The notes: generated by a model not told the origin, from the letters alone. DNA of 64,000 bases from Verrucomicrobiota bacterium (GCA_047947115.1 CP170459.1:711467-775466); one strand, 5' to 3'. Positions 53,901 through 64,000 are shown, numbered from the stretch's first letter. Numbers and translations are program-made.

Positions 53901-54192
53901 CATTGGGTGCCACCAGCGTGGCGTTTTCCACCAGCACACCCTTACTCGGAATCCAGCGCATGCTGTCAAAATCAATCTCCAGGCCTTTTTCCCGCAAGTT
54001 GTCCAGGATACGCGCTTTGACAAAGTCGGGAAGCCCTCGGTTCTCGAAATACCAGACAAAGCTTATCAGAACGATGGCAACAAGCATGCAAAACCAAAGT
54101 CCCCACCTCAAACCGGAGCGAACCCACCGCCTGCGTCGCCTCTTCTCAGGGCTCCGTGGCGGCTCTATTTTGCTTCGCTGCTTGTTTTCCAT
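50938..54192 (-). CDS. AsmA-like / YhdP-like large periplasmic beta-taco protein
   Basis: N-terminal TM, long beta-rich repeats, C-terminal LFEYRVTGTIGEP. Confidence 0.7.
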   Translation of the reverse strand: MENKQRSKIEPPRSPEKRRRRRWVRSGLRWGLWFCMLVAIVLISFVWYFENRGLPDFVKARILDNLREKGLEIDFDSMRWIPSKGVLVENATLVAPNDPNEPSFSADTIQVSIQPLQWLFKDINIEEAILRGGRLRLPIESEMDDVESFEAVGIATRLKLHSRQWWELDYLRAEMLGLEVTFSGSVTNAFAFSEWSTGKRSADTPQKFGQLLKQIVETKQRIQFNEPPEIKVHVDLDAKNPEKSAAHVSVHSDLIETKWAKLQGALLDAEIPPRDAAGDFWDLEWKLSWERAITPSDWEINGDLAGTAQLVTRSGKLKNARFAGNIEFGQAGKLIMDPLLVTGRISAPESDQTLWNAQASLISDEVAWQQAPAITLNRSEWRIQLDWRPGDSRQWSGDVFVDLQGVESPWASVARLTVQSRISPNPDTGEADNVDDWAWWAALKPFVIGLEAKVEGIEGPLLEASRFETQVQWDAPVLNIRRIEGELYRGHVDAKGSLDVPSRLVDLEVVSDFDAREIRHMLSENGKKWIDQYNWVDPPSLTAKGSAQLPAWTDPKPDWRGEVKPTLNIDGHFDVDAGAFRGVPVDGASSDIFFSDMIWRLPNLTIHRPEGVTRLGYECDARTQDYVWDVDSVAQPKALNPMLNAAGQKVLSQMEFPDPIEVKGKIWGRWHHLELTGGEAILKTGRMSYRDQACLSVEAQGSLTNQFFKIFNPIVQREEGKVTADALGIHAGQGFIEITNAVSHVHPMAIAHAIGPATARTLEPYRFSGAPKVTMNGKIPFDDIDSVTAQFDVDGGPFSFWRFNVPTIRSRIVWDHDKLTLQDVHAPFYQGTLDGEMRLNLHDGDGAGFEMDVDLEDVQLGPFMKDMVAETKDSEGNLSGKLRITSAETGDWESWNGYGNVHLRNGRLWDTPLFGVFSKLMNAVSPGLGNSRATRGDANFTITNSLIETDNMEIRERTARLQYRGSVDFDGVLDSRVEAELLRDASMLGKVFSLALWPVSKLFEYRVTGTIGEPEIKPLYFVPKYLLVPFQSLNNMNDWLLSENGLIPVQRLWQNKEGSEADDPKKQEESAQNEEITPPDGKIP

Positions 54193-55988
54193 GATTGGAT
54201 TTGACGGATATCATGTGTCAACGCATTCGAAACCTCGCAGATGACGGGTCCGGTTTCAAGATCCACCCCCACATAAACATCTGAATCAGGCGTCGATCTC
54301 CCGGTCAAAATACGTTTACTCGCCGACACCTCACCTCGCCTGAAATGTACCGTGATCTGCAATCGATCACCCTCAGGATCAAGACCGAACTGTTCATAAC
54401 GAACATCCCCTGCCTCCACCCAATCTTCGGCGTGTGGTTGGGACAACTTCTCGAGCACCTGGGGCATGTAACGCTTTTCCAAATCATCCAACGGGTCGCC
54501 ATCCAGCATCCATACACCGTTCAAGGCCTGCTTGAACTCTGCTTTGACACCCTTTTCCAAGATATCGATGCCGACAATTTCCTCAACCGGGACAGACCAT
54601 AGTTTGCGTTCTCTCAGCTCAATGGCGTGCTCCGGAATTTCGATCAACAAACTGGCTGGCAATTCATACAACGTGGATTCATCCGTCCGCTGGGCATACA
54701 TCGCACCACCAAAAGCACGACTGAACTTGATCCCAAGTGTGTTGGTTTTCTCGGATCCGTGCATGGTGGCCAATTCAATGTCGAACGACCCGACAGCAAA
54801 AATGTTCTCCAGTTGTTCTTTGCTGACGTCATCATGAAAAACCTTGGCAGTGATATTGACAAGGTTCTGGTGCAATCGCCCCACCAACTCGGCATCGGTC
54901 GGAATGGAAACCGGTTCGATAATATGCCAGGCAGCATCCTCAGGATCCCAGGACAAGGTGAAAGGTTCATCTCGTTTCAGTAAAATACGATTGCTCGTAA
55001 AACCCGGATCGATCAGGAACGCATCCCGAAAAGCGGCGATGGGTTGGTTCAATTGATCACTGAATACTCGCTCCGGAGCCAACAACACCGAATCACGACC
55101 TTGAGACATGGTATAACGTAACCCAGGCTTGTCGGGCACATTGAAACCAAAGGATACACGGAAAACTTCCTGCTGTTCCGACTTCAGCACCAGTTCCAGC
55201 ACCGGATCTTCCAGCCCCATCCATTGCAAATCCTCGTCAGATTCAAGCGCGACAAACCCCTGCGTTTCCCAGGTGGGCAGACTTTGCTTCAACAAGGTTT
55301 CAATCCGCACAAGATTGGCCCGGGTTCCCTTAAGATTCTCCGGAGCTTCCAACAACCAACGACCACCCTCAACGGGACGACTCATGATGACGGGACCTTC
55401 GGATTGAAGGATCTCGATTCGATCCACCTTGTCCAATTGAGCCCCCACAATGCGCGTGTCACGCCAGGCGTCCGCAGCGTCCGGAAGGGCATCCATCCAC
55501 CCGGCATCCACCACCCATGCCTCGGCTTGATCATCAACCCTCATGTAAATCTGATCTCCGACCGACTCGCGTTCCCCAAAACGAACGGTAACTTCCCGAT
55601 CCCCCGCCCCAACGATCACGCTCATCTGAGCCGGTTCCAGCCCAAAGGCCGACCATCCCCCTTCTCGCGAAATGATCTCGGGTTCAAGAATGGCTTTGGG
55701 CTTGAGACGGGTAATGGACTCGATCAATCCGGCCACCAAGGTCGGATGCGCCACATCAGAAAGAGGCTCAATCATGCGCCATCTTGTACCTTCTTTTTGA
55801 AATTCCAATTGAGCTTCCTTGCCCTGAACGCGAACGAATTCCCAAGTACCCAACTGGGAAACCGGTAAAAGGGTTCGATCCGCTCTGATCTCACCGGAGG
55901 ATCTTTGCCATGGCGCATCGAACAATACCACGATCCCGGTCAGTACCAGGGAAGTGATCCATAATAACATGGTTTGCTTGCGAATCAT
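54165..55988 (-). CDS. DUF4340 repeat protein
   Basis: N-terminal TM, repeated W...P...A, FGL..P and RD..L segments; follows GldG-like gene. Confidence 0.7.
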   Translation of the reverse strand: MIRKQTMLLWITSLVLTGIVVLFDAPWQRSSGEIRADRTLLPVSQLGTWEFVRVQGKEAQLEFQKEGTRWRMIEPLSDVAHPTLVAGLIESITRLKPKAILEPEIISREGGWSAFGLEPAQMSVIVGAGDREVTVRFGERESVGDQIYMRVDDQAEAWVVDAGWMDALPDAADAWRDTRIVGAQLDKVDRIEILQSEGPVIMSRPVEGGRWLLEAPENLKGTRANLVRIETLLKQSLPTWETQGFVALESDEDLQWMGLEDPVLELVLKSEQQEVFRVSFGFNVPDKPGLRYTMSQGRDSVLLAPERVFSDQLNQPIAAFRDAFLIDPGFTSNRILLKRDEPFTLSWDPEDAAWHIIEPVSIPTDAELVGRLHQNLVNITAKVFHDDVSKEQLENIFAVGSFDIELATMHGSEKTNTLGIKFSRAFGGAMYAQRTDESTLYELPASLLIEIPEHAIELRERKLWSVPVEEIVGIDILEKGVKAEFKQALNGVWMLDGDPLDDLEKRYMPQVLEKLSQPHAEDWVEAGDVRYEQFGLDPEGDRLQITVHFRRGEVSASKRILTGRSTPDSDVYVGVDLETGPVICEVSNALTHDIRQIQSWKTSSEAK

Positions 55989-56039
55989 GATTGCCTGCGT
56001 CTCATCAATCTCACTTTCTCATCCATTCATCCCTCGTCG

Positions 56040-57548
56040 TCAATACCGACGTTTCAACCAAACCAAAAATCCAATCCCAAATACTCCCAACGGCAATATC
56101 GCCAACATAAACCACTGTAACTGCCGAAGCTCTTTCGCAGGAATATCCATACGAAACTCCGTCAAGGCACGCGGACCAATCCCACCCAACAGGGTATCAC
56201 GTTCCAACAGCCAACTCATCGCCAACCCGGCTAAATCCCGGTTTCCCACTTTCTGCAGATGCACATTGCTGAAACACTGCGAATCCCCCAGCACAATCAT
56301 GCGCGAAGGAACCTGATTCAACCCGCTCTCCTCCGATGGCCTGGCTTCCAAACTCGCCATAAGGGGAATTTCCTGGTGAAAAGCGTCCGACCGGGCATCG
56401 AATAAAAACTCTCCATTTGAAAAGATGGATTTGCTCACACCATTGGTGGTCGTCACTGCGAGAAGATCAATATCCACATCGAACGTTTCCATGCGCTTGT
56501 TCATCGGCTGTAACGACCGTGGAAGGGACATGACCAGTGGAGTCCCGGTTCCCAACAAGGGATTCGTCACAGGATGCGGCGCCAGATTACCCACAAGCAA
56601 CTCGCTGCCGGAAAAAGTCCTCTCATCTTCAACCACATTTTGCCCCACAGAAATCCGCCAGGATCTCAACCAGTTCTCCAGCCCGGTCACCCTGCCAACG
56701 GCCTTGAAATTGAAACCAATCAAAACACGACCGCCCCCTCGCACATATTGATCCAGATGATGCAACTCTTCCGGTGCCCATTGCTGGACCGACCCGGCAA
56801 TGATCAAGGCCGCAACATCGTCCGGAATCGCTCCCTGTTCCCTTATGTTCCAGCTCTTGACCGCAAGGTTCTTTTCTTCCAGTGCATACTTCAAGGAAGC
56901 ATACCCATCCAGGTCCTGGCTCTCCAGATCATGCTCGTCGTGACCTTGCACGCAATAAACCACCGGAGTGTTACCCTCGACCAGATTCATCATCGCAGAC
57001 GTAAACAACATCTCCCCCTTGAACCCCACCGCCTTCATCATGAGCTGTCCCCCCTCATCCACATGCGTGGTGGTGTAATCGATCAACTCCTTAACAGACA
57101 CCACCCGGTGACGCCCCTCCATTGCGAACAAAACACTCTCGTGCTCCTGATCGTTCAGGAGTTCGAATTGTTTGCGGATCGTACGCGCTTTGTCGACTTG
57201 ACGCAGGTAATCCACCACCTCCACCTGAATGTTCGAATTGGCATGACGATATTCGTTGAGCAACCCCATGATGCTCGCATGGGGCGTGTCGCGTTCGTCC
57301 GGATCATGAAACACCACCACCCGCACCTCATTGGTCAGTGACCGCACCCAGGATTCGGTCAAAGGTGACAGCATGACCGCCGGATCCTTATGCCAAAGAA
57401 ATCGCCAGGGATGCTGGATCACCAGATAATTCACACAAACAGCCATCCAGACAATGGCGACACCCGCCAACACAAAATCCAACCAGAAAGCGCTCCCCGT
57501 GAGAAGGCCTCGGCGTGACAGATTGGATGGTTTGTCGGAAGGTTGCAT
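56040..57548 (-). CDS. GldG-like ABC-associated auxiliary protein
   Basis: N- and C-terminal TMs, LSPLT, QGHDEH, GGRVLI, IVLGDS...GNRDL. Confidence 0.8.
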   Translation of the reverse strand: MQPSDKPSNLSRRGLLTGSAFWLDFVLAGVAIVWMAVCVNYLVIQHPWRFLWHKDPAVMLSPLTESWVRSLTNEVRVVVFHDPDERDTPHASIMGLLNEYRHANSNIQVEVVDYLRQVDKARTIRKQFELLNDQEHESVLFAMEGRHRVVSVKELIDYTTTHVDEGGQLMMKAVGFKGEMLFTSAMMNLVEGNTPVVYCVQGHDEHDLESQDLDGYASLKYALEEKNLAVKSWNIREQGAIPDDVAALIIAGSVQQWAPEELHHLDQYVRGGGRVLIGFNFKAVGRVTGLENWLRSWRISVGQNVVEDERTFSGSELLVGNLAPHPVTNPLLGTGTPLVMSLPRSLQPMNKRMETFDVDIDLLAVTTTNGVSKSIFSNGEFLFDARSDAFHQEIPLMASLEARPSEESGLNQVPSRMIVLGDSQCFSNVHLQKVGNRDLAGLAMSWLLERDTLLGGIGPRALTEFRMDIPAKELRQLQWFMLAILPLGVFGIGFLVWLKRRY

Positions 57549-57557
57549 TGAACAAAT

Positions 57558-58316
57558 CTATTTTCGGCTTTCCACCATTCTCCAGGTCAGGAACAGGAAC
57601 AACCCGGTCAGGGACATATAAAACGTCAAATGCCTGGCATCAATCACACCTCGAACAAAGTCGGTCATATGATCGAACAGACTGATGTGACCAAAAAAAG
57701 CCGCCTGCCAACCGGATTGATCAGGGATGATCTCAATCACGAAACTCAACATGAACAAAACCATCTCCAAAGTCAGACCGATCATGGCCGCGATAAGCTG
57801 ACTCTTGGTACAAACCGAAGCCAGAGATCCCATTGACAAAAACAAGCCCCCAACCAGCAATACCCCAAGCATTGTTCCCCCGATGATCCCTGCATCCAGA
57901 TATCCTGGATCATTAAAAAACTGTCCCAGCCAAACCATCAACCCCCACAAGGGAATCCACATCAACCCATAAAAAGTCCAACTCGCGAAAAACTTTGAAA
58001 AAACCACCTGCACATTGCTGACGGGAGTCGTCATCAATGCCTCGTAGGTGCCCGTCGATTTTTCAAAAGCAAAACTGCGCATGGTAATCGCAGGGCAGGC
58101 CAGCAAGACAATGAACCAAAAGAAAGGTGTACTGTAGAAGGCCTCGGTCAAAGGAGCATCCATGGCCCGACCATTGTAGGCCAGGATGACCGTGAGGAGA
58201 CTCAGGCCAATGAGGAACATCACCATGCTCAGGATAACGTATCCCGTCAGAGTGGTTAGATAAAACCCAAGCTCGCGCTTGAGCAATGTTGCAAAAATCC
58301 TCATGTTATCAATCAC
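57558..58316 (-). CDS. GldF-like ABC-2 permease
   Basis: KRELGFY, TMRSFAFEKSTGTYEALMTTPV, RGVID. Confidence 0.85.
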   Translation of the reverse strand: MIDNMRIFATLLKRELGFYLTTLTGYVILSMVMFLIGLSLLTVILAYNGRAMDAPLTEAFYSTPFFWFIVLLACPAITMRSFAFEKSTGTYEALMTTPVSNVQVVFSKFFASWTFYGLMWIPLWGLMVWLGQFFNDPGYLDAGIIGGTMLGVLLVGGLFLSMGSLASVCTKSQLIAAMIGLTLEMVLFMLSFVIEIIPDQSGWQAAFFGHISLFDHMTDFVRGVIDARHLTFYMSLTGLFLFLTWRMVESRK

Positions 58317-59259
58317 CTAAAGGTCCATGACCCGATCGGGTCAACTGCACAAACAAATCCTCCAGAGTCGGCTGCCGATGTGTGAGCTCACGAAGCGTCC
58401 AACCGCGTCGTTTGACTTCCTCAAACAACAAAGGCCGCAAATCCACACCATCACTCGAAGTCAGCGTACACTCCAAAAACCCGCGCCCAAGATCCTTGAT
58501 CTTATGATCTGCCACTGACGGCATGGCCTGTAACGCATGCGCCAAAGCTTCCCACGGAGCGGCCACCTCCGCCACCACATGAGTCAGACTCCCCATACGC
58601 TGATGAATCTTCTCCTTGGAATCATCCGCCAGCAGCTTCCCGGTGTGTAAAATCAGGATTCGATCACAAAGAATCTCAACTTCGGAAAGGATATGAGTCG
58701 AAAGCAACACCGTATGATTCTCCGCCAACGATGCAATCAACTTCCGAAACAAGCGAACCTGATGCGGATCCAAGCCAATCGTCGGTTCGTCCAGTATAAT
58801 CACCTCCGGCTGATGCAGAATGGCGTCGGCCACCCCCACACGTTGACGATACCCCTTGGACATCTGACCAATAATTTTGCGCCGCACCTTGGACAAATCG
58901 CATAACTCCAGCACCTCGCCCAGACGTTTTCGCAGACGATCCCCATGCACTCCCTTCAACCCGGCCCGAAAACGAAGGTATTCCTCCACCCGCATGTCCA
59001 AGTGCAAGGGATTGTTCTCGGGCATGTAACCAATCCGTTTACGCACCTCCATCGGTTTGCGATCAATATCATAACCCGCAATCCGCACCTTCCCCGAAGT
59101 AGGCGGCATGAAAGTGGACATGATGCGCATGGTCGTGCTCTTACCAGCGCCATTAGGCCCCAGAAACCCGACAACCTGCCCTCGCTTCACCGAAAACGAA
59201 AGCTCGCGCAGGGCCGTATGCCCCGCATAGCGCTTGGTCAAATGTTCCACCTGTATCAT
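58309..59259 (-). CDS. GldA-like ABC ATP-binding protein
   Basis: GPNGAGKST, MSKGYRQRV, LDEPTIGLDP, STHILSEV. Confidence 0.92.
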   Translation of the reverse strand: MIQVEHLTKRYAGHTALRELSFSVKRGQVVGFLGPNGAGKSTTMRIMSTFMPPTSGKVRIAGYDIDRKPMEVRKRIGYMPENNPLHLDMRVEEYLRFRAGLKGVHGDRLRKRLGEVLELCDLSKVRRKIIGQMSKGYRQRVGVADAILHQPEVIILDEPTIGLDPHQVRLFRKLIASLAENHTVLLSTHILSEVEILCDRILILHTGKLLADDSKEKIHQRMGSLTHVVAEVAAPWEALAHALQAMPSVADHKIKDLGRGFLECTLTSSDGVDLRPLLFEEVKRRGWTLRELTHRQPTLEDLFVQLTRSGHGPLGD

Positions 59260-59415
59260 GTCAAATCCGATGCATTCCCAGACCTTTGAACCCAAAGGTG
59301 GGATGAACGTTCATTCTGCTGCCAGAACAAACCCCAGGCCAAGGAAAAATGTAAGGCAGGAGGTTCACTCCAACCTGGAAACACATCTACATTCTAGACT
59401 GCGAAACAAATTTAA

Positions 59416-62400
59416 TTAAGGAACACTGAGTTCTGAAAGATCGGTTTGCAGGGCCCCATTTGGCATCAGGGGTGAACAATCGGATGTGGCGTTCAATTCG
59501 GCGGCGCGAACACGGGCACGGTGTACCACGTGCGTGACACCCCGCACGCTGAGCAAACTGGGTTTCACGATATTTTCCATGGAAAGAAGCGAGTAAGGAC
59601 AATTGGCACAACTCCCGACGAAACGGATGACAACCTCACCCTTCTCCTCATTGATGTCCAACACTTCCAACTTGCCGCCATCATTGTTCAGAATGGGTTC
59701 AATCATGGTCTCAACCACTTGCTGCACCCTCCCCTGCAAGGTGGGCGCTTCCTCGATCTCGGATACGGCAATTTCGGGCTGCTGTTGGGCTAGTGAAAGG
59801 GCGGCAATCAATTGGGGGTCCTCGCTGACAGCATGCACTCCGAGTTTGCCAAGGGACTCGGCCAACTCCGGTTTGACGCGCTTTTCCACCAGGTATTCAC
59901 GAAATTTCTTGGGAGCGGCAGGGGCGATGTGAATTTTTCCTACATATTCTTTCCAGTCCAGAGGTTCCGGACCAAAGAAATCAAAGTTTTCATCCCCCGA
60001 CCTGATATATTGAACGATCAATTCACCCAGACGATCAAAGAACCGATTATGTTGCTGGGTGGTTGCCCCTCTTTTACGGTTGATCACAAAATTGCGCAGG
60101 AGTGTCAACTCACGATCACGCGGCAGGATGCCTGTTTTGACGTCCACTCGCACGGCACGATTTTTCCAGCGATCCACCACCATGATCGAGCTGGATCCGA
60201 TGGCACGGGAATGGATCAAACGGTCCGAATCAAGATCAGCCGGAGATATATCAACAAAGTGGGCAGGCACATCGCCGGCGCAGGGTATCGCAATCCCCGA
60301 CACAAAGGCCAACCGTTCACGCTCCACCTTGGCACCAGTGCCAAACAGCATTTCAATACCGCGCTTGATGGCGACAAACAACTGAATGGCCACAATCTCT
60401 TCCTTGAATTCCAATATGGAGCTTTTGTGGGCGGACAGGAGACTGGCCACCACTTCCTTTCCGTCTTCATCAACCAACACGATGCCCCCCGTAAGATCCG
60501 ACAGAAGCGTATGCAATGCGGACTGGAAATCCAACCGTCTCAGCAAAGGCAACAAGAAGCTTAATAACCGCCACCTGTCATTTGAATCCAACTCCCCAAG
60601 AACCTGACACCCCTGCTTGCGGTAATCCTTTGAGGTAACATATCGCTGAATAAAAGCCATAAATGCCCCGATAGCCGCGGCAAGTCCGGGATCGGATCCG
60701 GCATTTGAAAGCCGAATGACATCTTCCGCCGGCCAGGGATGTCTGGGGGGATACACCTGCTGGGTTTCCGCCCACTTTTCGTCCAATGGAAAATGTTTAC
60801 GGTAATCCTGATAGATGGTGTCGATCAGACTCTTTAAAATGGCAGTATCCGGTGAGTTCCAAAGCGCTTGCTCAATCGAAGTGAGGGCATGCAGATTGAC
60901 AGAGGTGCGCTTGATCAGACTTTGATTTGTAAATGCATCGGATTCGACGTAGTCGGTCAAACGATTGATCTCACCCGGAACAAAATCCATGAACACGGCA
61001 TCCAATGGCGTCCGATCGTTCAATGAAACAATTGCCACGGCGCTTCCCTGTCCCGAGGACAAGCGCACTGGTTGCCCCTGGCCCACACCTCGGGCGTTGG
61101 CAAGATCCGGATGTATTTCCACAAAGTATTCCTCGGCATCCACCCCATAAATGGGCAGTGTCTTGATCCCTGAATTGTACCTCCCCCGATAAGCCATGCC
61201 GTTCATACCGGGACGTCCACGTCCGCTGATCAACCGGATGGGGCCGGAAGAAGAGGCTGTCCGTCTGGATGATCCCTCTTTCGGCAGAGGCGCAACCGAA
61301 ACCAGGTAATCATCCGGAGGTCTAACCAAGCGCGCAGGTCCCCGGTCAGGATGCTGAAGCCTCGGGAACACATGCCCATCTGTGGAAGATTTCTGATAAC
61401 GACCATTTCCCTGCCATTGCACGCCGATACCAGCCATGTCCCGAAGCATCAAGTGACTGATCGGAAGACCGTTCTGGTCCACCAGCTTGGAATAGAGGTT
61501 CAACTTGCCGGATACTTCCACAATATGATCAAACACCTTGGAGGAATCCACATCACCCTGATCATCCACATACTTCGCAAAGGTGCGCTCAACGACATCG
61601 GGGGAAAGATCATTCAGCTGAGCCGTGTCCGGATCCTGCAGGCGCTTGGCAATGGCCAGAGCCAGTCGGGCGAGAATCTGTTCGTCGGACCAGGCGTTTT
61701 CCGGGGGCTCGGTAAGGCGTTGCTGCAATTGTAAGGTCCGATCACCGCGCTGAATCACACCCGTACGTTCGGTATAAGTCATGGACGGCAACAGCACATC
61801 CGCCCACTCCAGCACTCCATCCGCGAGAAAGGGATCAATGACCACATTGAAAGCGCGTCCCATGCGCCGCATCCAGTGCCCCAGTCTCGGCATGTTTTTG
61901 GTCATCTGCGTTCCGACAAAAAGGAACCAGTACAATCGGTCATCTTCACACATGTGCGAAACCGGGGTTCCCTTTCCGGAAGGGATATTACTGATGGGAA
62001 GATCCAGAGCGTCAGCCAAAGCCTCACGATGTTCTTCACAATGGGGGTCCATGTTAAACAGAAGCCTTCTGGAATTGAAGCCCATCATGAGTTCACTTGT
62101 CGCATTGGACTGTCCGGCAATACGCAGCGATCCGGCCCCCTTTCGTCCGACATTGCCGGTGAGCAACAGCAGATTCAAATTCGTCGAAAAACCATAAGAT
62201 CCCGTACTCTGATTAATCCCCATGCTGGAAACAAAGGCAACTTTGGGACGTTGACCGGAGGAATGATCTGATGGCCGTGATATTAAGGCCGCATAATCGC
62301 GGATCACTTTCTCGAGATGCGCAGGATCGTCACCTGTCGCCACAATACTGTGTGCCACGCTTGAAGGTTCACAACGATCTTCCATGACCAATTCACGAAA

Positions 62401-63339
62401 GGCCTGCAAACTTTCAATGTCCACCACACGTTGCAAATATTCCCTGTCTTCCCACCCCTCCTCAAGAATCACGCGACTGACTGCCAGATTGAACAAGACA
62501 TCACAACCTTGCTGAAAACGAATGTGAAGCGTTCGTTCGTCACAGGCCTTCAAATCAGAAACCGTGTCGGTTGCAACCGGATCAATCACCACCTTGATGG
62601 GATGCGGATTACGTTTCAACTTTTCGTAAGCTTGGGGAAATGTGATGTAAGGATTCGTTCCATGAAGTACCGCAATGTCACAAAAGTCCAATTCTTCAAA
62701 TTCCTGCCAGGTGAATGAAGCTTCATTCCCAAAATTCAATTCATGGGCAGCTCCTGCACTGGCAAGGCAATGCTCGGAATTGGCCCCAATCGTGGGCATT
62801 TTAAATACAAGTTTGTAAAGGGAAGCCATCCAGATGGCCTCAAGAGTTTTCTGGCCATTTCCATACAATCCCACCGCGTCCGGGCCCACCCATTCTCGCG
62901 CATGTAAAAACAACCATGCCGCCCGATCCAAGGCTTTTTCCCAGGAAACCGGGTGCATCTTTCCGTCATGCCCCCGAATCATGGGTGAGGTGATCCGGTC
63001 GTCGGGCAGTTTCCTTTTCTCGAGACGCTGCCGACGCTCGGTCAATCCTCCAGTCATAAGGGAAGTTTTCCCTTTGATACAAAGTCCAAGAGCACTCATG
63101 GGCACCACAACAGGACGCCCCTTCTTATCAGCTTCTACCGCATAAGGACAACCCACGCCGCAATAACTGCAAACACTTGATTGTGAGGTAAGGCGATCAA
63201 ATCTCTCCCTGGCGGCCGGTAATGCACGCAATTGGGCATCCTGCCTGAAATGACGCACGAACTTCCAGGCTTCCATATTAATTGGTTCGGGAGTTTTCGC
63301 TTTTTGAGCAGTGCGCATGGCTTGATTTTTTGAATTCAT
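59416..63339 (-). CDS. Cytoplasmic molybdopterin oxidoreductase (NasA/Nap-like) fused to an unknown domain and a C-terminal NifU/NfuA domain
   Basis: CSYCGVGC...LCIKG [4Fe-4S], NSEHCLASA Mo-Cys, AGQSN, TYTERTGV, FVEIHPD; C-terminal EPILNNDGGKLEV...GSCANCPYS; start placed at ATG 63339. Confidence 0.8.
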   Translation of the reverse strand: MNSKNQAMRTAQKAKTPEPINMEAWKFVRHFRQDAQLRALPAARERFDRLTSQSSVCSYCGVGCPYAVEADKKGRPVVVPMSALGLCIKGKTSLMTGGLTERRQRLEKRKLPDDRITSPMIRGHDGKMHPVSWEKALDRAAWLFLHAREWVGPDAVGLYGNGQKTLEAIWMASLYKLVFKMPTIGANSEHCLASAGAAHELNFGNEASFTWQEFEELDFCDIAVLHGTNPYITFPQAYEKLKRNPHPIKVVIDPVATDTVSDLKACDERTLHIRFQQGCDVLFNLAVSRVILEEGWEDREYLQRVVDIESLQAFRELVMEDRCEPSSVAHSIVATGDDPAHLEKVIRDYAALISRPSDHSSGQRPKVAFVSSMGINQSTGSYGFSTNLNLLLLTGNVGRKGAGSLRIAGQSNATSELMMGFNSRRLLFNMDPHCEEHREALADALDLPISNIPSGKGTPVSHMCEDDRLYWFLFVGTQMTKNMPRLGHWMRRMGRAFNVVIDPFLADGVLEWADVLLPSMTYTERTGVIQRGDRTLQLQQRLTEPPENAWSDEQILARLALAIAKRLQDPDTAQLNDLSPDVVERTFAKYVDDQGDVDSSKVFDHIVEVSGKLNLYSKLVDQNGLPISHLMLRDMAGIGVQWQGNGRYQKSSTDGHVFPRLQHPDRGPARLVRPPDDYLVSVAPLPKEGSSRRTASSSGPIRLISGRGRPGMNGMAYRGRYNSGIKTLPIYGVDAEEYFVEIHPDLANARGVGQGQPVRLSSGQGSAVAIVSLNDRTPLDAVFMDFVPGEINRLTDYVESDAFTNQSLIKRTSVNLHALTSIEQALWNSPDTAILKSLIDTIYQDYRKHFPLDEKWAETQQVYPPRHPWPAEDVIRLSNAGSDPGLAAAIGAFMAFIQRYVTSKDYRKQGCQVLGELDSNDRWRLLSFLLPLLRRLDFQSALHTLLSDLTGGIVLVDEDGKEVVASLLSAHKSSILEFKEEIVAIQLFVAIKRGIEMLFGTGAKVERERLAFVSGIAIPCAGDVPAHFVDISPADLDSDRLIHSRAIGSSSIMVVDRWKNRAVRVDVKTGILPRDRELTLLRNFVINRKRGATTQQHNRFFDRLGELIVQYIRSGDENFDFFGPEPLDWKEYVGKIHIAPAAPKKFREYLVEKRVKPELAESLGKLGVHAVSEDPQLIAALSLAQQQPEIAVSEIEEAPTLQGRVQQVVETMIEPILNNDGGKLEVLDINEEKGEVVIRFVGSCANCPYSLLSMENIVKPSLLSVRGVTHVVHRARVRAAELNATSDCSPLMPNGALQTDLSELSVP

Positions 63340-63426
63340 TGTGCTGGTCTCCTTGGCTTGATTGATCCTGGCAGAGTAGGAAATCATCACTTCCAGATAC
63401 AAGATATAAAGTTCGAAAATCCGACA

Positions 63427-64000
63427 AGTCGCCTTTGAAGTCGCCTTTGGGGTCACGTCTCGACATTCAACATTTGGCAAATCGTATCCATTTGCTTTTT
63501 CAACCGTCTTTCAGTTTGGATCTTTTTGTTAAAACGCCGTATCCCAGCACTGACACTTGAATAGTCCATGTCCCCCACCTTTTCCCCTAACTCAGCCTGG
63601 GTTAATCCACAATATCGATGCGCAAGCCATAGCAACATCCACTTACCCAAATCACCATGCCTCCCTACCCAATCACGCATCGGTTCAGTTTTGTGTTCTT
63701 CCAATACTTCAATGACTTTTTCTAATGGAACAGTTCTTTTGAAACGAAACCGCCCCTCGTATTCACGCGCATTATTCGGATCTACATAGGATTTGATCTT
63801 TTCCAGGAATTCCGCTGAACCGACTGCTATCTGTTCCTTGAATTGTTCAAACGTAGTTTCCTGGATTCCCCGACGCACCTGATCCTTGGTCATCTCACGA
63901 TAACGTAGATGCCTATCTCTGAGTCGCCTTTGAAGTCGCCTTTGGGGTCACGTCTCGACATTCAACATTTGGCAAATCGTATCCATTTGCTTTTTCAACC
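63427..64000. repeat. Identical 79-bp direct repeat (63427-63505 and 63922-64000), spacing 495 bp
   Basis: AGTCGCCTTTGAAGTCGCCTTTGGGGTCACGTCTCGACATTCAAC...TTTCAACC occurs twice; the second copy runs to the window edge. Confidence 0.9.
63453..63893 (-). pseudogene. C-terminal fragment of a REP-associated (RAYT/Y1-type) transposase with DnaA-C-like HTH
   Basis: LAHRYCGLTQAELGEKVGDMDYSSVS...LNVET then TGACCCC; no HUH domain in the fragment. Confidence 0.65.

Follow-up and report, generated by a model that had tools for sequence, protein, structure and literature searches.

A nitrate reductase-like molybdoenzyme that continues into a remote FmdE-like domain and an Nfu domain

Introduction

A 64,000-nucleotide stretch of a Verrucomicrobiota genome (the window) contains, at 59416..63339 on the minus strand, a complete open reading frame encoding 1307 amino acids and a stop codon. 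Its product begins as a nitrate reductase-like molybdoenzyme and continues into a long middle region and an Nfu-type domain. The locus raises the questions of whether such a fusion is real, which substrate the molybdenum core might use and what the C-terminal extension might do for it.

The fusion gene and its transcription

The gene is genuine and transcribed, and the fusion is real. The ATG at 63339 is preceded, with a spacing of 9 nt, by the Shine-Dalgarno sequence AAGGAG (63349..63354, minus strand). A longer version of the protein starting at TTG 63480 is disfavoured by a 12-nt indel polymorphism at 63426 and by contig breaks at 63446-63476, both of which were found upstream of the Shine-Dalgarno sequence when assemblies were compared. 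The segment 63427-63505, immediately 5' of the gene, is repetitive, and contigs end there.

This repetitive segment is all that speaks for an artefact, whether a chimera produced by misassembly, two genes read through as one or a pseudogene in decay. The coding sequence itself is free of indels across four independent metagenome assemblies, and a single 16.5-kb contig (assembly X2) spans the whole gene. RNA contigs from four metatranscriptomes tile every module of the 1307-residue protein, and many samples from estuaries, marshes and the sea contain the gene and its transcripts. Furthermore, a homologue search showed that the full three-module architecture is common to more than 120 protein clusters from six phyla, at 48-71% identity, and every functional motif is invariant. 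The shared architecture, the indel-free assemblies and the RNA coverage refute misassembly, read-through and pseudogene alike, including the misassembly or missing stop that the initial annotation had considered as a source of the fusion, and we regard the probability of an artefact as practically nil.

The molybdenum core

By its domains, its FS0 motif and its ligand cysteine, the protein is a member of the Mo/W-bisPGD superfamily, the cofactor itself being predicted. The FS0 [4Fe-4S] domain (residues ~55-110; 63010..63177, minus strand) carries the pattern C57-x2-C60-x3-C64...C87-(I/V)-K89-G, of which the four cysteines and K89, the FS0-to-pterin Lys, are invariant in an alignment of 29 homologues, which was used to judge residue invariance. 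Comparison with PDB chains by sequence and profile aligns this segment with the FS0 domain of NapA and formate dehydrogenases. The Pfam model Molybdop_Fe4S4 was not triggered in the 1307-residue protein, and it is recorded for two homologues. The other Pfam domains looked for were all found: the Molybdopterin oxidoreductase domain PF00384 (residues 115-560; 61660..62997, minus strand; E = 1.6e-26, 93.7 bits against a cutoff of 24), the molybdopterin dinucleotide-binding domain PF01568, Molydop_binding (residues 716-797; 60949..61194, minus strand; E = 2.6e-13, 50.4 bits against a cutoff of 26.8), and the NifU domain described below.

The Mo-ligand motif, N187-S-E189-H190-C191-L-A-S-A-G196 (62752..62781, minus strand), was located by alignment. 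C191 pairs with Cys140, the Mo ligand in Desulfovibrio desulfuricans NapA, as well as with the corresponding cysteine of the same genome's own Nas, and the motif ANSEHC191LASAG is invariant in the 29 homologues. Residues 1-50, as read from the translation, contain neither a twin-arginine motif nor a hydrophobic stretch, and the lack of a Tat signal points to a cytoplasmic protein. The core is thus as it had initially been described, with an intact [4Fe-4S] motif, a cysteine at the ligand position, a dinucleotide-binding domain and no Tat signal.

A Foldseek search identified D. desulfuricans NapA (2NAP/2V45/2JIO) as the best fold match to the core (TM 0.80-0.81, 21% identity), and NapA is also the best PDB match by sequence (1e-30 with the single sequence and 4e-43 with a profile). 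As in monomeric NapA, there is one FS0 cluster and a Cys ligand to Mo, and the equivalent of Met308 is kept as M373. Unlike NapA, the fusion protein has no Tat signal and about 490 additional C-terminal residues, and Arg354, Arg138 and Met141 are replaced by Met418, Glu189 and Leu192, respectively. Cytoplasmic location, FS0, predicted Mo-bisPGD and the Cys ligand are likewise shared with NasA, NasC and NarB, many of which are also extended C-terminally past Molydop_binding.

Active site, gene context and substrate

Such similarities could mean that the protein is a variant assimilatory nitrate reductase of the NasA/NarB type with an odd C-terminal extension: NapA is the nearest solved fold, the ligand is Cys as in Nap and Nas, the protein appears to be cytoplasmic, and NasC and NasA are among the best NCBIfam matches. 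The active site, however, has lost both of the arginines that characterize Nas and Nap. E189, which is invariant, stands in place of the Arg in the NxRxC motif. The position of the other active-site Arg falls into the segment G409-Q-S-N-A-T-S-E-L417-M418 (62086..62115, minus strand), in which NapA R354 aligns with M418, whereas the Arg of the 'GSRL' motif in the genome's own Nas aligns with L417. L417 is invariant, and M418 is at least 90% conserved. Hence, two independent alignments agree that both arginines are replaced, one by Leu/Met and the other by Glu.

The family scores also contradict a nitrate reductase assignment. The NCBIfam models for NasC, NasA and NapA gave 136.2, 135.4 and 106.5 bits against cutoffs of 1100, 1000 and 904, which for the Nas models is roughly eightfold below the equivalog cutoffs and three- to fourfold below the genome's own 736-residue Nas paralogue (500, 437, 476 and 344 bits on the Fdh-alpha, NasC, NasA and NapA models, respectively).

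The gene context is equally unlike that of Nas. As originally noted, the window is free of nitrite reductase and nitrate transporter genes; the only Nrt and NirA genes of the genome are located about 5 Mb from the fusion gene, in a complete canonical NrtABCD-Nas-CysJ-like-NirA cluster. All eight other carrier genomes tested likewise hold closer Nas/Fdh-type paralogues. When 48 loci were clustered, neither a nitrate/nitrite partner, such as nir or nrt genes, nor any other conserved partner recurred; the Pfam survey of neighbours covered ten flanking genes of eight loci. Motif screens detected no ferredoxin-type reading frame. The altered active site, the gene context and the family scores far below their cutoffs disfavour nitrate, as the initial annotation had suggested. 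We lean towards a substrate other than nitrate and consider a variant assimilatory nitrate reductase improbable.

A formate dehydrogenase-type enzyme (FdhF/FdsA-like) could be proposed on similar grounds, as the top NCBIfam match is Fdh-alpha (TIGR01591, 173.8 bits) and ForCE1 and the alpha subunits of NAD-dependent formate dehydrogenases rank near the top of the structural matches. The Fdh-alpha score, however, compares with a cutoff of 666 bits. Moreover, Leu192 rather than His directly follows Cys191, and the position of the Arg in the Fdh 'RGQ' motif, compared by eye, is occupied by Ala408 of an invariant LRIAGQ; here the Fdh motif positions (Sec/Cys-His and the Arg before GQ) are taken to be those of FdhH and FdsA. 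There are no FdhD or diaphorase genes nearby. A formate dehydrogenase seems to us very improbable indeed. Considering that E189 and L417/M418 occupy the places of the arginines and that the protein lacks both the Cys/Sec-His dyad and the Arg of Fdh, the substrate is probably neither nitrate nor formate. The pocket could nevertheless be lined by an Arg contributed from another part of the fold.

The C-terminal extension

The middle region, about 355 residues without a Pfam match, had initially been described as unrecognised and largely helical, and this holds for only part of it. The excised piece comprising residues ~812-1195 has no Pfam match even at E<=10, and its first part (residues ~812-965; 60445..60906, minus strand) is indeed a family-specific helical subdomain, modelled by AF2 as helices with high pLDDT, for which no Pfam, PDB or Foldseek relative was found. 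However, the confident AF2 model of the middle region (pLDDT 91.6, pTM 0.90) also contains an alpha+beta domain (residues ~966-1125; 59965..60444, minus strand) that remotely resembles FmdE in Foldseek, PF02663 and hhalign comparisons.

The sole specific Foldseek match, 3d00, has a probability of 0.99, but an E-value of 0.04 and a TM-score of 0.39 over 148 columns. PF02663 matches 29 of 36 family members collinearly over profile positions 10-129, all of them below threshold (the best score is 18 bits against a gathering cutoff of 22.9). The copy in the window gives no PF02663 match, and the FmdE HMM finds nothing in the genome at E<=10. An hhalign comparison with FmdE resulted in an E-value of 0.006, yet a probability of 6%. 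We interpret the core of the middle region as a remote FmdE-like fold, whose similarity stays below the level that would place it in the FmdE family.

FmdE itself exists as an individual protein and is not counted in the holoenzyme. The domain described here appears, by Foldseek, to have its alpha+beta core fold (PF02663; 2GLZ, 2GVI, 3D00) and shares its association with a Mo/W-bisPGD enzyme, which in the present case is a covalent fusion. The gene for FmdE is co-transcribed with those for Mo formylmethanofuran dehydrogenase, FmdE is also found fused to the molybdopterin-binding domain PF00994, and its metal site consists of His15, His17 and Cys19 (FHGHxC) and Cys55, which is followed by Asp58 (PMC2954224). 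In the fusion protein, H971, C1020 and D1023 are invariant. C1020-x-x-D1023 is spaced as Cys55/Asp58, a similarity of motif spacing without significant alignment, and H971 lies, again by motif spacing only, near the position expected for the FHGHxC loop. The equivalents of His17 and Cys19 are lost (AHKS), so that by this spacing two of the four metal ligands are kept. Furthermore, the domain is devoid of the zinc ribbon of FmdE and is set between the helical subdomain and extra helices.

These terminal helices (residues 1126-1170) and a variable, low-confidence linker (residues 1171-1196) together occupy 59752..59964 on the minus strand. According to the homologue alignment, the linker differs between lineages in both length and sequence. 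In the full-length model (pTM 0.89), the linker before the Nfu domain is the only segment with a pLDDT under 50, and the high whole-chain pTM suggests that the module of helical subdomain and FmdE-like domain packs rigidly on the core.

The final domain (residues ~1197-1275; 59515..59751, minus strand) belongs to the Nfu/NifU C-terminal type. Its Pfam match (PF01106, residues 1205-1262) has an E-value of 1.4e-11 and 44.8-50 bits against a cutoff of 27, it matches NFU1 and NifU-like chains in the PDB, and both CxxC cysteines of GSC1244xNC1247P are invariant in the 29 homologues, which bears out its original identification as an NfuA-type domain. Nfu proteins are Fe-S carriers. E. coli NfuA and the C-terminal domain of human NFU1 (2M5O) have the same fold and CxxC motif, and in NfuA, too, the carrier domain is joined to a second, client-directed domain. 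Unlike in NfuA, the client, a 4Fe-4S molybdoenzyme, is here part of the same polypeptide, and there is no A-type carrier domain.

A conserved subgroup

The sequences support a conserved subgroup within the Nap/Nas/Fdh branch of the Mo-bisPGD enzymes (DMSO-reductase superfamily), in accord with the new subgroup that had been proposed. Among 1.84 billion representatives, the middle-region domain is confined to this fusion, and the 1307-residue enzyme type is rare. We found no paper describing an architecture composed of a molybdoenzyme, an FmdE-like domain and an Nfu domain. We are highly confident in the anatomy as described and in a distinct, uncharacterised subgroup, taken jointly. Cultured carriers are Marinicellulosiphila megalodicopiae TOYAMA8, Kordiimonadales IMCC3096 and Thiorhodococcus minor DSM 11518.

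Proposed role of the extension

Overall, the best explanation appears to be a non-nitrate Mo-bisPGD oxidoreductase with a built-in cofactor-handling module, to which we give about an even chance. The protein would work on its own and in soluble form in the cytoplasm, as an oxidoreductase of the Nap/Nas/Fdh branch with Mo (or W)-bisPGD as cofactor, and ferredoxin, flavodoxin or another soluble donor would pass electrons directly to FS0, as happens in monomeric NarB. The accessory module would be a device for cofactor handling. The tethered Nfu domain could carry a labile [4Fe-4S] cluster, which would bridge a homodimer or have C1020/H971 as further ligands, and could supply or mend the oxygen-sensitive cluster of FS0. 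The FmdE-like fold shifts the reading towards handling of the Mo cofactor alongside that of Fe-S: this domain, whose relatives occur together with Mo/W enzymes and in fusions to molybdopterin-binding domains, might aid insertion or retention of the Mo cofactor. We hold an accessory module for self-maturation or repair with somewhat less than even confidence, and a self-maturing molybdoenzyme, whose FmdE-like and Nfu domains take care of inserting, guarding or repairing its Mo-bisPGD and FS0, is a tentative and rather unlikely proposal. A permanent 1:1 fusion of a maturation factor would be unusual.

Enzymes of the NasA type commonly carry a redox domain at the C-terminus, and the extension sits where theirs does, C-terminal to Molydop_binding, although it consists of helical, FmdE-like and Nfu domains in place of the BFD [2Fe-2S] domain of NasA and NasC. 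Hence, the FmdE-like and Nfu domains might instead form an electron-entry module with a stable extra Fe-S centre, made of C1020, C1244/C1247 and His/Asp or bridged in a dimer, which would relay electrons from a soluble donor to FS0 like the BFD cluster of NasA/NasC. Exactly three invariant cysteines and an invariant His/Asp outside the core, the predicted rigidity of the middle module on the core and the lack of a conserved partner gene that could supply a redox subunit are all consistent with this arrangement. However, Nfu CxxC clusters are labile carrier clusters, and we know of no Nfu domain with a role as a centre for electron transfer. No extra domains are involved when monomeric NarB and NapA-type enzymes take up electrons at FS0, the Nfu domain is tethered by a variable, disordered linker, and both accessory domains come from maturation-type families. 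We regard electron entry through the extension as rather unlikely, though only a little less probable than self-maturation or repair.

Significance

Mo-bisPGD enzymes usually need dedicated chaperones that are separate from them (NarJ, TorD, FdhD, NapD) and general Fe-S carriers. To our knowledge, no other molybdoenzyme has built-in cofactor-handling machinery, and the present one would be the first. If the proposed cofactor-handling role is true, aerobes and cyanobacteria would be able to run an oxygen-sensitive Mo/Fe-S enzyme from one self-standing gene, and the long-orphan FmdE fold would gain a concrete role in the handling of Mo/W cofactors. The re-lined active site, with Glu/His/Leu/Met for Arg/Arg, suggests that a substrate of the Nap/Nas/Fdh branch has gone unrecognised and, if this is true, would lead to a substrate class new to the branch. 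The transcription of the gene in many estuarine, marsh and marine samples means that this activity may matter there, and the existence of cultured carriers makes the question directly testable. A conserved family that welds relatives of two accessory proteins to an enzyme is a natural single-polypeptide system, useful for studying the loading or protection of the Mo cofactor and FS0 and the function of the FmdE fold.

Authenticity, expression and spread of the fusion gene

The gene on the minus strand at 59416-63339 joins a Mo-bisPGD core, a middle region (residues ~812-1195) and an Nfu domain in a single 1307-aa chain. The initial annotation had left room for a misassembly or a stop codon missed in the reads, but the fusion is not an artefact. 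Among 5.8 billion proteins searched, more than 120 clusters (1250-1320 aa) share its three Pfam domains at 48-71% identity, and the only names they bear are ‘molybdopterin-dependent oxidoreductase’ or double names in COG style. In the window protein, the Pfam matches are Molybdopterin (115-560), Molydop_binding (716-797) and NifU (1205-1262), all over their cutoffs. At least 20 metagenomes of marsh, estuary and seawater, drawn from many studies, contain nearly identical DNA. When contigs of four independent studies were aligned to the window, the coding sequence differed by substitutions alone, with no indels; one assembly (X2) holds the whole gene on a 16.5-kb contig, and pieces cover it in the other three runs. 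In four runs, metatranscriptome contigs of at least 97% identity together cover all three parts (catalytic, middle and Nfu), so that transcription in situ is established, although such libraries can contain some DNA.

The longest frame found by ORF calling spans 59416..63480 on the minus strand and would start at a TTG at 63480. We rejected this start and took the ATG at 63339, because AAGGAG lies 9 nt before it, an alignment of 29 diverse homologues shows no conservation upstream of it and hence no conserved longer N-terminus, and the DNA further upstream contains both a contig-breaking repeat and an indel polymorphism (a 12-nt deletion at 63426 in three of four metagenome runs). Residues 1-50 have neither a twin-arginine motif nor a hydrophobic segment, which bears out the earlier remark that there is no Tat signal. 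A promoter and terminator scan gave nothing above chance, and the DNA upstream of the gene in seven loci contains neither a Moco riboswitch nor any other Rfam element.

The family is rare (about 45 of 185,579 species-representative genomes) and patchily spread over Verrucomicrobiota, several alpha- and gammaproteobacterial lineages, Myxococcota, Caldilineaceae and filamentous cyanobacteria. The nearest relatives of the window protein are from Verrucomicrobiota (71% identity), and the maximum-likelihood tree groups it with two proteins of that phylum with support of 100/100. Cyanobacteria and Chloroflexota are each monophyletic in this tree. Pseudomonadota are split over at least three places and Myxococcota over two, and this scatter indicates some lateral transfer of the gene.

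The catalytic core

The four cysteines of the N-terminal [4Fe-4S] site (FS0; C57, C60, C64 and C87) and K89 are invariant in the 29 homologues, as are the segment A-N-S-E-H-C191-L-[AT]-S-A-G and many pterin-contact motifs. In alignments, C191 falls on Cys140, the Mo ligand of D. desulfuricans NapA, and on the corresponding Cys of the Nas-type enzyme encoded in the same genome. Judged from these alignments, the predicted core is shown to be intact, running from FS0 through the Lys to the bis-PGD and Mo(Cys). For a full-length AF2 model, we chose a 59%-identical homologue instead of the window protein because its 1200 residues span FS0 to the end of Nfu. The model has a mean pLDDT of 88.1 and a pTM of 0.89, and its best structural match is monomeric NapA (TM 0.80-0.81 normalised to the target, 21% identity), followed by the alpha subunits of NAD-dependent formate dehydrogenases and ForCE1.

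The description of the protein as nitrate-reductase-like thus holds for the nearest fold and for the Cys ligand. The further suggestion of a substrate other than nitrate is probably right too, as both arginines typical of Nas/Nap are replaced: in two independent alignments, the conserved active-site arginine falls on the invariant Leu417/Met418 and the arginine of NxRxC on the invariant Glu189. Where formate dehydrogenases have His after the Mo ligand, the residue following Cys191 is Leu, and in our own motif comparison Ala408 takes the position of the arginine in their ‘RGQ’ motif. Curated NCBIfam models place the fusion protein far under all cutoffs, with 174 bits for Fdh-alpha (TIGR01591; cutoff 666), 136 for NasC (1100), 135 for NasA (1000) and 106 for NapA (904), whereas a 736-aa paralogue from the same genome scores three to four times higher over its full length (500, 437, 476 and 344 bits, respectively). 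This paralogue is the Nas-type enzyme of a canonical nitrate-assimilation cluster (G000:C1:5756000-5775900) located 5 Mb from the fusion gene in the 6.08-Mb, single-contig genome, together with two NrtA-like proteins, NrtB, two ATPases, an Fe-S/DmsC-like protein, a CysJ-like flavoprotein and a NirA-family protein that scores over its cutoff. Closer Nas/Fdh-type paralogues are found in all eight other carrier genomes tested. The fusion protein is probably neither a nitrate reductase nor a formate dehydrogenase.

The electron-supply set of the nitrate-assimilation cluster is itself unusual. A 529-aa protein with a 4Fe-4S dicluster domain and a DmsC-like membrane anchor directly precedes the Nas-type enzyme, which is followed by the CysJ-like flavodoxin/FAD/NAD flavoprotein and then by the NirA-family protein. 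A third Mo-bisPGD paralogue in this genome (G000:C1:3463383-3464849), with an open frame of 913 aa and one in-frame TGA, is probably the alpha subunit of a selenocysteine formate dehydrogenase, and three other carrier genomes have similar paralogues that contain TGA.

The middle region and the Nfu domain

The region from residue ~812 to ~1195, which had been called unrecognised and largely helical, has no Pfam match. An AF2 model of residues 812-1175 from a 76-sequence alignment (pLDDT 91.6, pTM 0.90) retains the helical description for a bundle at ~812-965 and for three or four terminal helices, but places an alpha+beta domain between them at ~966-1125. The latter is also where ‘unrecognised’ needs amending, as a Foldseek search of the PDB found a single specific match for it, the FmdE-like 3d00 (probability 0.99, E 0.04, TM 0.39, 148 columns), the rest being noise. 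In separate scans of 36 family members, FmdE (PF02663) was the sole Pfam family matched recurrently in the middle region, in 29 of them, always below the cutoff (best E 0.0013). Of 10 members rescanned, the 8 for which match coordinates were listed all match collinearly, profile positions 10-129 falling on residues ~982-1117. Across a 10.6-Mb Limisphaerales genome, the FmdE HMM gives a signal solely inside that genome's copy of the fusion gene. Profile-profile alignment to canonical FmdE proteins fell in the same register with E 0.006, at low probability; hhalign against a single FmdE sequence was not significant (E 0.08). Against membership stand the absence of an FmdE-HMM match at E<=10 in the window's own copy and the absence of any match at E<=10 between the middle-region profile and PDB chains. 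As the evidence points both ways, we call the domain a remote FmdE-like fold, its membership of FmdE not being demonstrated.

In published FmdE structures, the metal site consists of His15, His17 and Cys19 (motif FHGHxC) and Cys55, followed by Asp58 (PMC2954224). In the fusion family, C1020-x-x-D1023, spaced like Cys55/Asp58, and His971, within a degenerate ‘AHKS’, are invariant, but His17 and Cys19 have no counterparts; this residue correspondence is inferred from motif spacing. No stand-alone form of the middle region was found when its whole-region profile was compared with 1.84 billion representative proteins. The strong ones among the 25 matches are fragments of the same fusion family, and one weak match (P0142) looks chimeric.

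The C-terminal NfuA-type assignment was confirmed. By its over-cutoff NifU match and invariant CxxC (C1244/C1247), this is a bona fide Nfu/NifU C-terminal-type domain. Outside the catalytic core, exactly three cysteines are invariant: C1020, C1244 and C1247. The linker before Nfu differs in length and sequence between lineages and is the sole disordered stretch in the full-length model of the homologue.

Genomic neighbourhood

ORFs clustered from 48 loci of six phyla revealed no consistently adjacent nitrate or nitrite gene, nor any other gene. Conserved partners were rejected, as lineage-level synteny alone was found; a pooled cluster present in 18 loci proved to consist of generic ABC ATPases, no ferredoxin-motif or DRTGG neighbour recurs, and a RimO-like radical-SAM gene is syntenic at the level of Minwuia/Kordiimonadales. 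In five of five cyanobacterial loci (L024, L027, L028, L036 and L038), a DUF1858 protein of ~80 aa (PF08984, 59.8 bits in L038) adjoins the fusion gene or lies within ~1.1 kb of it. DUF1858 also occurs in ScdA/YtfE iron-centre-repair proteins, and this synteny, restricted to one lineage, may be a hint of a link with Fe-S repair. Two non-recurring neighbours could be single-lineage redox partners: a 143-aa globin directly upstream in a Caldilineaceae locus (L026, 7401-7832) and, in one alphaproteobacterial MAG (L060, 6593-6958), a 121-aa ferredoxin (Fer4_13/Fer4_15) on the same strand, 90 nt upstream.

In the window, as had been noted, no nitrite reductase or nitrate transporter is adjacent, and the neighbours are unrelated to the fusion gene. 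An ABC-2 transporter set (54165-59295, minus strand), which has no linkage to the gene in other lineages, begins 121 nt downstream on the same strand and comprises an ATPase, a permease, an ABC_transp_aux/GldG-like auxiliary protein and DUF4340, followed by a 1084-aa AsmA-like protein. Upstream is an IS200-like (Y1_Tnp) transposase-type gene, the 3' end of which is duplicated as a 79-nt direct repeat (63427-63505 and 63922-64000), leaving a truncated 146-aa ORF (63453-63893). A 31-mer at 63446-63476 occurs nine times in the genome on both strands with up to three mismatches. Because metagenome contigs break there with differing flanks, we suggest that it is a REP/RayT-like mobile repeat.

Proposed role of the accessory module

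Full-text literature searches yielded nothing relevant on the fusion, and in a 2023 review on the maturation of molybdoenzymes neither ‘NfuA’ nor ‘fused’ occurs and FmdE is not covered. The middle module (helices plus the FmdE-like domain) is confidently modelled, and the high whole-chain pTM suggests that it is docked on the core; the Nfu CxxC domain is tethered. C1020 and the CxxC might bind a stable cluster through which electrons reach FS0, in parallel with the C-terminal [2Fe-2S] domain of NasA-type enzymes; we rate this main alternative as only somewhat less likely than the reading that we prefer. We lean, tentatively, towards a module that handles cofactors. Nfu proteins are Fe-S carriers, and the flexible tether of this domain would fit a mobile carrier. 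FmdE genes, for their part, are co-transcribed with those of Mo formylmethanofuran dehydrogenase and frequently neighbour metal transporters, and some FmdE domains are fused to a PF00994 molybdopterin-binding domain (PMC2954224). Since both accessory domains come from maturation-type families that match the two cofactors of the enzyme, the fusion family may possibly carry its own built-in cofactor-handling module.
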